A stretch of 64,000 nt of DNA from Escherichia coli. Lineage in GTDB: Bacteria > Pseudomonadota > Gammaproteobacteria > Enterobacterales > Enterobacteriaceae. Shown piece by piece: positions 20,748 to 22,565 of the stretch (position 1 is its first letter; each line of letters starts with the position of its first letter). The notes under the pieces were generated by a model. It was not told the DNA's origin. It was given only the letters and a program-made list of their open reading frames with translations, and searched no databases. A program made the translations under genes and the position numbers. The stretch is taken from assembly GCF_048403405.1 (NCBI RefSeq), contig NZ_CP183129.1. One strand, given 5' to 3'.

Positions 20748-21506
20748 ATGAGCCTGACCCTCACACTTACTGGCACTGGCGGCGCACAGGGCGTTCCCGC
20801 ATGGGGCTGTGAGTGCGCGGCCTGCGCCAGAGCGCGGCGCTCATCGCAGTATCGCCGCCAGCCATGCAGCGGCGTCGTGAAGTTTAACGACGCGATCACC
20901 CTGATCGACGCCGGGCTGCACGATCTCGCCGATCGCTGGTCGCCCGGATCGTTCCAGCAGTTTTTGCTGACGCACTACCATATGGATCACGTGCAGGGGC
21001 TGTTTCCGCTGCGCTGGGGCGTGGGCGATTCGATCCCGATCTACGGCCCGCCGGATGAACAGGGCTGCGACGATCTGTTTAAACATCCGGGCCTGCTTGA
21101 TTTCAGCCACACGATGGAACCGTTTGTGGTGTTTGATTTACAGGGGTTACAGGTCACGCCCCTGCCGCTCAACCACTCAAAACTGACCTTCGGTTATCTG
21201 CTGGAAACGGCACACAGCCTGGTGGCGTGGCTGTCTGACACCGCTGGCTTGCCGGAAAAAACGCTGAAATTTTTACGCAATAATCAGCCGCAGGTAATGG
21301 TGATTGATTGCAGCCATCCGCCGCGTGCGGATGCGCCGCGTAATCACTGTGATTTAAACACCGTGCTGGCGCTGAATGAGGTTATCCGCTCGCCACGGGT
21401 GATTCTGACGCATATCAGCCACCAGTTTGATGCGTGGCTGATGGAAAACGCACTGCCGTCGGGGTTTGAGGCGGGGTTTGATGGGATGGAGATTGGGGTG
21501 GCGTGA
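20748..21506 (+). CDS. phnP: metallo-beta-lactamase-fold phosphodiesterase
   Basis: ORF 20709-21506 trimmed to ATG 20748 ([12 protein letters not shown]...), 252 aa; HxHxDH motif (THYHMDH). Confidence 0.9.
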
Positions 21507-21560
21507 TGGGATGGAGATTGGGGTGGCGTGATGGGATGGAGATTGGGGTGGCGTGATGGG
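21480..21560. repeat. tandem direct repeat, 25-bp unit gatgggatggagattggggtggcgt x3 plus a partial copy
   Basis: Units at 21480-21504, 21505-21529, 21530-21554 are identical; the first unit encodes the last phnP codons and the stop TGA 21504-21506. Confidence 0.9.
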
Positions 21561-21597
21561 GAGAATGTGCTCGCTGGCCCCCTCACCCGAGCCTACC

Positions 21598-21927
21598 TCA
21601 TCGCCCATACTCATCTTCCATTCTCCGCTCTTCATCCTCCAGTTGCCGACGCTCCTGATCAAGCTGGCGCTGGCGATCGTCCAGCTGCCTGCGGCGATCT
21701 TCAAACTGGCGGCGGCGGTCGTCATATTGTCTGCGCCGATCGTCGCTCACTTCACGCTGCCAGCCGTCGTCGTGCGAATCTTCATAGTCTCGCCCACGGT
21801 CAGGGTTATAAGCATCGTTAATCGCCTGCTGAATATTGCCAATGGTGTCGTCGATAATATCGGCCTGGGCCGGAACGGTGGACAGCGTGAGCAGGGTGAA
21901 TAAAAGAAATAGCGGAAAGCGTTTCAT
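21598..21927 (-). CDS. yjdP: secreted low-complexity protein with charged DDRRRQ-type repeats
   Basis: 109 aa; N-terminal signal peptide followed by RRRQ/DDRRRQ repeats; convergent with phnP. Confidence 0.8.
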   Translation of the reverse strand: MKRFPLFLLFTLLTLSTVPAQADIIDDTIGNIQQAINDAYNPDRGRDYEDSHDDGWQREVSDDRRRQYDDRRRQFEDRRRQLDDRQRQLDQERRQLEDEERRMEDEYGR

Positions 21928-21995
21928 TAGCCAACCTCAAAAAGAAACTCTATCCACATTAGTCATTACTCATCCATGCAAGTAGTGGATGAATC

Positions 21996-22313
21996 TCAAT
22001 TTCTCCGCTGCTCTATTGCCGTAATCGCCTCCACGTGTTGTTGATGACGACCGCCTTCGTACTGCGCGCCCAGCCACGCATCCACAATCATTTTTGCCAG
22101 TTCGAGGCCAACCACTCGTGAACCAAAAGCCAGTGCAACTTCACTGGCATAATGCGGATAATCAGTGCGCTCTGACGACCTGGTGTCTTTATCAATCACC
22201 TCACTCATTGACCATGAATAAAAGGCTGGCACAGCAACGCAGAATCCTGCGGTGCCAGCGACATGACCGCCCATTGCTCCGGTACGTTTTTTAATAAAAA
22301 ACACCGGTTGCAT
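21996..22313 (-). pseudogene. rpiB: degraded ribose-5-phosphate isomerase B remnant
   Basis: Translation ends ...FGSRVVGLELAKMIVDAWLGAQYEGGRHQQHVEAITAIEQRRN, matching the RpiB C-terminus as I recall it, and contains SERTDYPHYAS; about 52 internal residues including the ICGTG active-site Cys region are missing and the N-terminal GCDHVG motif reads GGHVAG. Confidence 0.6.
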
Positions 22314-22565
22314 TGATTAATTGTGCTCAGTATTTGCCGAAGTACAATATATATAATAAATATATAAAACACCTCATATTATTTACAGAGATAATAAATT
22401 CGCGTAATTTTCCCTCTTCAGCACAAATGCCTAATAAAATGGCGCGTTCAGCTCACACTTCTACTTATTAAAGTCGCAATTTCCCAATTATGATAACGCC
22501 AGCTTTAAATGACGTATTTTGCATGGATTACATATTTACGACACAAATGATAAATGGAGATTTAT

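Follow-up and report, generated by a model that had tools for sequence, protein, structure and literature searches.

The window analysed here, a stretch of 64,000 nucleotides of Escherichia coli DNA, carries the gene yjdP on its minus strand. The features of the gene and of its product are the following:

21598..21927, minus strand: yjdP coding sequence, ATG to TGA, 109 codons plus stop (NF041443, E 7.2e-44)
21935..21938, minus strand: Shine-Dalgarno sequence GAGG, 7 nt before the ATG, as read from the sequence
21862..21927, minus strand: signal peptide, aa 1-22 (MKRFPLFLLFTLLTLSTVPAQA), with predicted signal peptidase I (SPase I) cleavage after A22
21874..21900, minus strand: imperfect 9-bp units TTCACCCTG, CTCACGCTG and TCCACCGTT in the h-region of the signal peptide (the window carries the standard-length allele)
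21805..21861, minus strand: N-terminal amphipathic helix, aa 23-41 (DIIDDTIGNIQQAINDAYN), near-identical across genera
21766..21804, minus strand: acidic linker, aa 42-54, poorly conserved and differing in length and sequence between genera
21601..21765, minus strand: long charged helix, aa 55-109 (AF2 helix 54-108)
21619-21744, minus strand: six heptads, aa 62-103
21672..21744, no strand assigned: DNA-level repeat (TRF: period 21, 3.5 copies, 75% matches), the only stretch in which the repeat is visible in the DNA

The product matches the NCBIfam equivalog model NF041443 ('DDRRRQL repeat protein YjdP') with 148.2 bits (E 7.2e-44), well above the curated cutoff of 90, and the alignment runs end to end, with residues 1-103 covering profile positions 1-101 of 101. 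The architecture of the family, as seen in alignments with 12 and with 56 relatives, is a signal peptide followed by an A-D-I-I-D helix, an acidic linker and the DDRRRQL heptads. The 701 nt around yjdP are 100% identical to E. coli TUM14771, in whose record (NZ_CP128875) the gene is annotated as yjdP and is flanked by phnP and an rpiB remnant. YjdP of the window is 99% identical to YjdP of K-12, the single substitution being H52 for R, and the synteny is the same. The window gene is thus the E. coli member of the YjdP family (NF041443; Pfam PF28054 in precomputed annotations), with no difference from it. The name yjdP used in the preliminary description is correct according to both the NF041443 match (148 bits, cutoff 90) and the RefSeq annotation; yjdP is an already known, annotated gene, and its family has been named. 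A literature search on yjdP and on the DDRRRQL repeat found no functional study. A CsiR ChIP-seq/RNA-seq report mentions yjdP with 3.5-fold repression and a 'genic' peak, an observation that we judged too weak for use.

A yjdP match was present in 5,404 of 5,426 complete E. coli genomes. The family is tiny: among 1.84 billion proteins only 50 cluster representatives were found at E ≤1e-3. A scan of species-representative genomes detected yjdP in at least ~20 genera, and among the matches listed all were Enterobacteriaceae; the genera include Escherichia, Citrobacter, Enterobacter, Klebsiella (K. oxytoca), Raoultella, Kosakonia, Kluyvera, Leclercia, Buttiauxella, Phytobacter and Cedecea. Judged from these matches, yjdP is a real, conserved gene confined to Enterobacteriaceae. 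The gene preceding it varies: it is rpiB-als in K-12, the rpiB remnant in the window and yjcS in some genera. In O157 the upstream neighbour is the OI167 histidine kinase (PMC10128022).

The preliminary description had taken the product for a secreted protein, and the signal peptide behind this call is supported by the orthologues, all 57 of which conserve its features. In the window the signal peptide opens with a positively charged n-region (MKR), continues with a hydrophobic core of 15 residues and ends in A-Q-A ahead of D23. All 57 orthologues have Ala at -1, Ala or Val at -3 and Asp at +1, an n-region charge of +1 or +2 and a best 10-residue Kyte-Doolittle mean between 1.6 and 2.8. The sequence hallmarks of Sec-dependent export and SPase I cleavage (positive n-region, h-region of 7-15 residues, small residues at -3 and -1) are therefore present. 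Those of a lipoprotein are not: the lipobox L-[AS]-[GA]-C was found in 0 of 57 orthologues, and the mature part contains no Cys in any of them. The signal peptide evolves fast (dN/dS 0.13-0.68) but retains its physical features as the sequence drifts, which is what genuine cleavable signals generally show. YjdP is probably exported to the periplasm via Sec and cleaved by signal peptidase I after Ala22. In the literature searched, export of YjdP was represented only by the mention of a 'putative signal peptide'.

The commonly length-variable site of yjdP is located in the signal peptide, not in the heptads, and did not figure in the preliminary description. In ST131-type strains (SE15, MNCRE44 and records labelled O25b:H4-ST131) the codons of the h-region form a perfect (TTCACGCTG)n array, which encodes (F-T-L)n. 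Alleles of this VNTR with n = 3, 5, 6 and 7 specify proteins of 112, 118, 121 and 124 aa (genes of 339, 357, 366 and 375 nt, respectively). With the 118-aa allele as probe, the expanded array was found in ~9-10% of complete E. coli genomes (ranks to ~460-550 of 5,398 records). Commonest among these alleles is n = 5, represented by 298 records at ≥99% identity. The imperfect 9-bp units of the window are the ancestral state of the VNTR site. An h-region lengthened to 24-30 residues might hinder cleavage by signal peptidase or alter targeting. The VNTR is a possible typing marker for the pandemic ST131 lineage, and it offers a natural experiment on signal-peptide length.

Upstream of the gene two further elements were recognized, the first of them inferred from a block of conserved alignment columns at fixed spacing:

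21956..21961, minus strand: putative -10 hexamer TAATGT
21985..21998, minus strand: RcsB-box-like 14-mer TGAGATTCATCCAC, within the conserved block TTGAGATTCATCCACTAC (21982-21999)

The block upstream of yjdP (TTGAGAtTCCTCCGCTAC) was compared in 53 distinct orthologous upstream regions. Its family form is (A)ATTGAGAtTCCTCCGCTAC, it always lies 72-75 nt from the ATG, and in the alignment of the 53 orthologues no conservation was detected further upstream. The block is followed by a variable 13-nt spacer and then by a hexamer of the family consensus TAnnnT, which is TAACGT or TACCGT in most orthologues and TAATGT in the window. The block is conserved in 53/53 orthologues although the upstream gene differs between genera; in the window the 14-mer overlaps the stop codon of the rpiB remnant. 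All 53 regions match the RcsB-box core TNRGAN4TCY. The published box of the RcsB homodimer is TN(G/A)GAN4TC(T/C)NA (PMC7913699). Seven of its eight specified positions are matched in 53/53 orthologues, and the terminal A is absent in all 53. RcsB boxes are degenerate, and the 7-position core TNRGAN4TCY, taken without the final NA, has 12 matches in the 64-kb window.

With the hexamer taken as the -10 element, the centre of the box would fall near -42.5 from the inferred start, and the -35 region would be a poor one. A generic sigma-70 scan upstream of yjdP did not return a full promoter, a result that a poor -35 region and the need for an activator would explain, since this is the layout of an activator-dependent promoter. 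The 'terminators' called inside the yjdP coding sequence were rejected as GC-rich codon runs.

Two RcsB sites were available for comparison: that of rprA, which has been crystallised (TTGAGACGAATCTGA) and spans -33 to -53, and the RcsB box of osmC, TGAGATTTATCCTA (PMC7913699). TTGAGA opens the yjdP block as it does the rprA site, and the two occupy the same position; relative to the osmC box, the first 7 bases are identical and 11 of the 14 positions of the window 14-mer match. The core TGAGA-N4-TCC is thus common to yjdP and to these RcsB-activated promoters, in which the box stands beside the -35 region. In contrast to them, the yjdP box is without the terminal consensus A and has an extra conserved CCGCTAC on the promoter side.

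A published RNA-seq experiment bears on the same question. On inhibition of LolCDE the yjdP mRNA increased 9.5- and 10.6-fold, and osmB, bdm, wca genes, rcsA, ivy, yjbEFGH, spy and cpxP were co-induced (PMC5105897). The list of induced genes is dominated by Rcs targets, to which Cpx and RpoS genes are added; because it includes RpoS- and Cpx-dependent genes, the induction of yjdP could be indirect. Taken together, the conserved putative box and the published RNA-seq suggest that transcription of yjdP is activated by RcsB, and direct control by RcsB through the candidate box appears likely from the match and its position. The RcsB-box-like block is a new lead of this analysis. An RcsB-type candidate promoter element would place yjdP in the envelope-stress response, and RcsB activation would place its product among the small periplasmic proteins made under envelope stress.

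The mature protein of 87 residues (~10 kDa after processing) has no enzyme-like features. Its high charge, pointed out in the preliminary description, was confirmed: D19, R19, Q10 and E9 make up 66% of it, the net charge is -9, and 64% of the residues of the repeat region are charged. The N-terminal helix carries Ile at positions 25, 29, 32 and 36. AF2, run with a 13-sequence alignment, predicted a low-confidence helix at 18-40 (pLDDT 57-66), an unstructured stretch at 41-53 (pLDDT below 50 at 46-50) and a single continuous helix of ~55 residues at 54-108, with 10-residue block means of pLDDT between 88 and 97 over residues 61-100 (pTM 0.35).

The degenerate heptads reported earlier are present as six units, DDRRRQY DDRRRQF EDRRRQL DDRQRQL DQERRQL EDEERRM, followed by EDEYGR. 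The self-identity of the protein at lag 7 is 0.39 vs 0.12 in 2,000 composition shuffles, none of which reached 0.39 (z = 7.8). A consensus taken over 57 orthologues reads [DE][DE]R[RQ]RQL for the heptad, with Arg in 94% at position 5, Gln in 76% at position 6 and Leu in 84% at position 7, and in 56/57 orthologues the hydrophobic residues at exact 7-residue spacing form a chain of six. On the helical wheel this leucine stripe is flanked by Arg3 and Arg4. Counting charge pairs at i/i+3 and i/i+4 gave 36 opposite and 4 like pairs; shuffles gave ~21 and 20, and none of 5,000 was as extreme.

Pairwise comparison with orthologues gave an overall dN/dS of 0.04-0.14. Constraint is strongest in the repeat region: its dN is ~0.03-0.05 with synonymous sites saturated, and its dN/dS is near 0.01-0.07. 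The N-terminal mature helix, compared with Citrobacter orthologues with unsaturated dS, gave 0.03-0.09. The DDRRRQL repeat is under strong purifying selection and is not a drifting low-complexity tail.

Searches for structural or domain relatives gave little. The PDB sequence search returned 0 matches at E up to 1, and local Pfam yielded only sub-threshold coiled-coil-like matches, e.g. DUF7900 (E = 0.029). NCBIfam matches to FlbB, RNase Y and MutS2 were confined to the charged helix and far below the cutoffs, and were rejected as composition matches, as were the JGI names 'Skp family chaperone' and 'RNase H-like nuclease' attached to relatives. In Rfam only a chance match to mir-48 was found (E = 0.97).

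Ordered pairing of opposite charges at i/i+3 and i/i+4 stabilises single alpha-helix (SAH) domains. The heptads of YjdP have the dense opposite-charge pairs of such domains (36 vs 4), and AF2 predicts an isolated helix; as to the absence of a hydrophobic seam, which is also characteristic of SAH domains, YjdP has its conserved leucine stripe. In the structure that we favour, the mature protein would consist of a conserved, Ile-rich amphipathic helix, a floppy acidic linker and a straight helix of six heptads, ~8 nm long, in which Asp/Glu and Arg at i/i+3 and i/i+4 would form a continuous ladder of intrahelical salt bridges. With one Leu per heptad, the hydrophobic surface would be a narrow stripe flanked by Arg. 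The long helix would then be a rod of fixed length, stabilised by salt bridges and possessing one conserved face for binding or self-association, rather than disordered filler. Single alpha-helix domains do not typically conserve a Leu stripe and a Gln, and these features point to a partner or to self-association. We argue from the leucine stripe and the position-specific conservation that one face of the helix binds a partner or another copy of the protein, and the likeliest mode of action of YjdP would be binding, not catalysis. The lower helix propensity of Asp, compared with that of Glu, counts against the rod.

The same heptads could instead form a canonical coiled coil, a parallel or antiparallel dimer or a trimer with a Leu core and inter-helix Arg/Asp salt bridges, in which the Ile-rich N-helix would be a second element of oligomerisation. 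The strict 7-residue periodicity with a conserved Leu is what such a structure demands, a Leu at d would put Arg and Asp at g and e in the pattern of g-e' salt bridges, and position-specific conservation is stronger than is usual for single helices. Fusing two mature copies through a 45-residue Gly/Ser linker raised the pTM of the AF2 model from 0.35 to 0.44, a change to be read with the restriction that contacts between the copies were not readable. However, the hydrophobic residues at both a and d of a canonical coiled coil were not found: there is one per heptad, at position 7, and positions 3-5 are Arg, or Gln at position 4. Almost every repeat would thus place an Arg at the second core position, a serious obstacle to a stable core, and a single hydrophobic residue per heptad sets YjdP apart from the classical coiled coil. 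The charge pattern, moreover, is already fully satisfied within a single helix, and in the tandem fusion the N-helices lost confidence. Foldseek against the PDB gave no useful match for either the monomer or the tandem fusion, and no two-helix match. We regard a canonical coiled coil as possible, though doubtful.

It is more improbable still that the mature protein is essentially disordered and acts through bulk charge, either protecting the periplasm in the manner of a hydrophilin or soaking up cations or cationic antimicrobial peptides. A net charge of -9, a repeat region that is 64% charged, the lack of Cys and of any PDB or fold relative, the variable acidic linker and the induction together with desiccation, osmotic and envelope-stress genes would all suit such a protein. 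But bulk charge leaves unexplained why six heptads are conserved, with 94% Arg at position 5, 84% Leu at position 7 and invariant residues, and why dN/dS in the repeats is near 0.01-0.07. The confident AF2 helix and an order of charges far from random also speak for the salt-bridged rod and against disorder.

A constant length of this rod was indicated by the number of heptads, which is six in 56 of 57 orthologues from ~20 genera of Enterobacteriaceae. The preliminary description had expected the internal repetition of the DNA to make the gene prone to changes in repeat number. The repetition is real (TRF, 21 bp x 3.5) but weak: copies match at 75%, the DNA shifted by 21 nt has an identity of 0.58 with itself, and no exact direct repeat is longer than 8-9 nt. 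Rare in-frame losses and a gain of heptads do occur. A 309-nt gene with a one-heptad deletion was found in at least 22 of 5,405 complete E. coli records (~0.4%), and the complete genomes contained three independent exact 21-nt deletions (TUM14697 type, ST2747 and EC42405); all one-heptad deletions recovered in complete genomes fall among the first three units (21672-21744). In a large protein database the 102-aa alleles have at least five junctions, e.g. Y-NDRRRQL, F-EDRQRQL, loss of EDEERRM, Y-EDRRRQL and S-DDRRRQF. An allele of E. albertii (123 aa) has gained two heptads (+14 aa). Every length variant observed was in frame. Three rare alleles, each on 6-11 contigs, have indels of 1-5 residues inside the repeats, which implies that the heptad register is not absolutely required.

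These variants are accounted for by slippage between short CGCCGC-type microhomologies, by which exactly one or two units are now and then lost or gained, in frame. The units of 21 bp are only ~58-75% alike, and selection maintains six heptads almost everywhere. The instability foreseen earlier is thus confined to rare in-frame events, at ~0.4% of complete genomes and under purifying selection, and across strains the repeat number is near-invariant at six, which comes close to the outcome that the preliminary description had named as contradicting it. Change of heptad number is real but rare and selected against, and the length of the rod is held by selection.

The idea implied by the preliminary description, that yjdP evolves rapidly and often changes its repeat number between strains, like a contingency or antigenic-variation locus, is largely refuted, and we consider it highly improbable. 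Several independent one-heptad deletions, a two-heptad gain and the separate 9-bp VNTR of the signal peptide, which varies from n = 3 to 7 in ST131-type strains, agree with it. Against it stand the low frequency of heptad-number variants (~0.4% of complete genomes), the six heptads of 56/57 species, DNA units that share exact matches of only 8-9 nt, and the strong purifying selection. Phase variation would require a repeat unit that is not a multiple of 3, or one placed in a promoter, whereas units of 21 and 9 bp cannot switch the frame and all alleles observed are in frame.

The position of yjdP tail-to-tail with phnP, found in 68 of 79 loci from ~20 genera, could suggest that YjdP works with the phosphonate (C-P lyase) pathway, but there is hardly any chance of this: the two genes are convergent and therefore not co-transcribed, the conserved block upstream of yjdP resembles an RcsB box, and where phnC-P are absent (Phytobacter, Kosakonia sp. 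S29) yjdP is kept, adjoining homologues of phnA/yjdM and crfC. Since yjdP persists at loci lacking phnC-P, its association with phn is positional and not functional, and a functional yjdP-phn operon link was rejected.

The model that we favour combines these elements: an exported YjdP with a fixed-length, salt-bridged rod of six heptads, transcription activated by RcsB, and in-frame slippage checked by selection. Taken as a whole, it seems to us reasonably probable. A bolder version, which we consider rather improbable, would make YjdP a direct RcsB-activated, free-standing periplasmic SAH of ~8 nm, serving as a rod or spacer that presents the N-helix or the Arg-flanked Leu stripe to an envelope partner in stress; the expanded signal peptide of ST131, with an h-region of up to ~30 residues, would then give a membrane-tethered form. 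If this were true, the bacterial periplasm would gain in YjdP its first stand-alone protein of the SAH type.

Among known systems the SAH (ER/K-type) domains of myosin VI/X and caldesmon and the trichohyalin-like repeats have in common with YjdP the dense, ordered opposite charges and a predicted long isolated helix, and weak matches of the yjdP repeat to giant charged-repeat proteins were seen. YjdP differs from them in using Asp, Arg and Gln instead of Glu and Lys, and in its strict heptad, its conserved Leu stripe and its position-specific conservation; furthermore, it is a small, stand-alone protein, predicted to be periplasmic, and is no spacer segment of a larger polypeptide. TolA domain II and Braun's lipoprotein Lpp are elongated periplasmic helices built from short repeats, and their length is a functional variable. 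Unlike them, YjdP has no membrane anchor, lipobox or terminal binding domain; there is no sequence similarity, and the canonical a/d hydrophobic core of Lpp is absent. Spy, CpxP and ZraP resemble YjdP in being small, helical, exported (by prediction in the case of YjdP) and induced by envelope stress, and spy and cpxP appear in the same RNA-seq. YjdP is far more charged and repetitive than these proteins, to which it has neither a Pfam/NCBIfam nor a fold match.

yjdP belongs to the conserved E. coli genes without assigned function, and the analysis provides testable statements on export, the helix and the promoter. The expected instability of the heptads is minor. The gene is known, and the finding as a whole is ordinary.

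Two open reading frames on the opposite strand, also listed in the preliminary description, overlap the gene:

21528..21821, plus strand: antisense ORF of 97 aa, GTG start, spurious
21553..21903, plus strand: antisense ORF of 116 aa, GTG start, in the codon-aligned antisense frame, spurious

Both are present and spurious as had been described, but their cause is the amino-acid composition more than the DNA repetition to which they had been attributed. Synonymous resampling of the whole gene predicts as many antisense stops as were counted. When the repeat region was resampled in this way, two of its antisense frames were open in 64% and 80% of cases, vs 51% and 6% for ordinary composition; they stay open because codons for D, E, R and Q seldom place a stop on the opposite strand. 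Both GTG starts (21528 and 21553) sit in a strain-specific intergenic 25-bp tandem repeat. As genes the two ORFs were rejected, given the resampling expectation and starts and lengths that are not conserved: both differ between K-12, O157, ST131 and the strain with the 102-aa allele.

Members of the YjdP family differ in length mainly in the acidic linker and in the signal peptide rather than in the charged heptads. In ST131-type E. coli strains the h-region of the signal peptide holds a 9-bp VNTR, (TTCACGCTG)n, with n = 3, 5, 6 or 7, giving proteins of 112 to 124 amino acids. The positions of the array and of the alleles that carry it are as follows.

Window 21874-21900, minus strand: 9-bp VNTR region in the signal-peptide h-region of yjdP
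L003 401-757; L004 401-739; L087 371-736; L088 371-745: ST131-type yjdP alleles with the VNTR

The expanded array is found in about 9-10% of complete genomes, and the yjdP allele in the window represents its imperfect, ancestral form. The expansion may affect the predicted cleavage or targeting of the signal peptide. In the Raoultella orthologues (L049, L074, L041) it is the linker that has short repeats of its own, DDDRY or DDGRY, whose copy number varies among species, yielding proteins of 111 to 116 amino acids. In one complete genome, that of E. coli FLI21, an IS1X2 element lies inside yjdP (L007 574-1679). Since the element interrupts the gene, yjdP is dispensable at least in this strain.

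The spacer separating yjdP from the convergent phnP gene is highly variable in length among the E. coli strains compared.

Window 21507-21597: phnP-yjdP spacer, 91 nt
L002 2608-2753: the same spacer in K-12, 146 nt
L003 758-784: ST131-type strains, 27 nt
L005 715-790: O157, 76 nt
Window 21479-21560, plus strand: perfect 25-bp tandem repeat, 3.3 copies, TGATGGGATGGAGATTGGGGTGGCG

The K-12 spacer contains a REP-like element with strong folding (z = -3.0), which has been catalogued as a hairpin-G-quadruplex element (PMC5100583). In the window spacer neither significant structure (z = 0.3) nor a terminator-like site was found; phn read-through transcripts would therefore run antisense to yjdP. The TGATGGGATGGAGATTGGGGTGGCG repeat begins within the final phnP codons and extends into the spacer. 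The phnP stop TGA recurs in every copy, which puts a stop into each of the three frames (21504, 21529 and 21554). The 701-nt region around yjdP was matched at ≥99% in only 8 of 5,405 records; the triplication is thus rare.

On its 5′ side yjdP is preceded by a conserved block and, at fixed spacing, a hexamer.

Window 21982-21999, minus strand: conserved block, TTGAGAtTCCTCCGCTAC
Window 21956-21961, minus strand: TAnnnT hexamer
Window 21996-22313, minus strand: ORF annotated 'RpiB/LacA/LacB family isomerase' (rpiB remnant)

The block is present in 53/53 orthologous upstream regions, despite the differing upstream gene. By its sequence, the deeply conserved block resembles an RcsB box and is a candidate site for this regulator. 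It also has a conserved CCGCTAC, additional to the RcsB-box-like part.

The stop codon of the rpiB remnant sits within the RcsB-box-like site, and the HK gene annotated upstream of yjdP in O157 stops at the same TGA. The remnant keeps just the last ~41 RpiB residues (profile positions 103-143, score below cutoff). The entire K-12 alsR-alsBACEK-rpiB region is missing from the window (21996-22313 and 22314-22553), and the start of yjcS lies at 22554. The haplotype with this deletion is a common one in E. coli; the OI167 island occupies the slot in O157.

In many genera, Escherichia not among them, a GCCAG...CTGGC inverted repeat flanks the Shine-Dalgarno region of yjdP.

~10-35 nt upstream of the yjdP ATG: GCCAG...CTGGC inverted repeat (L011, L033, L041 and other non-Escherichia loci)

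This putative 5′-UTR hairpin could act on yjdP translation.
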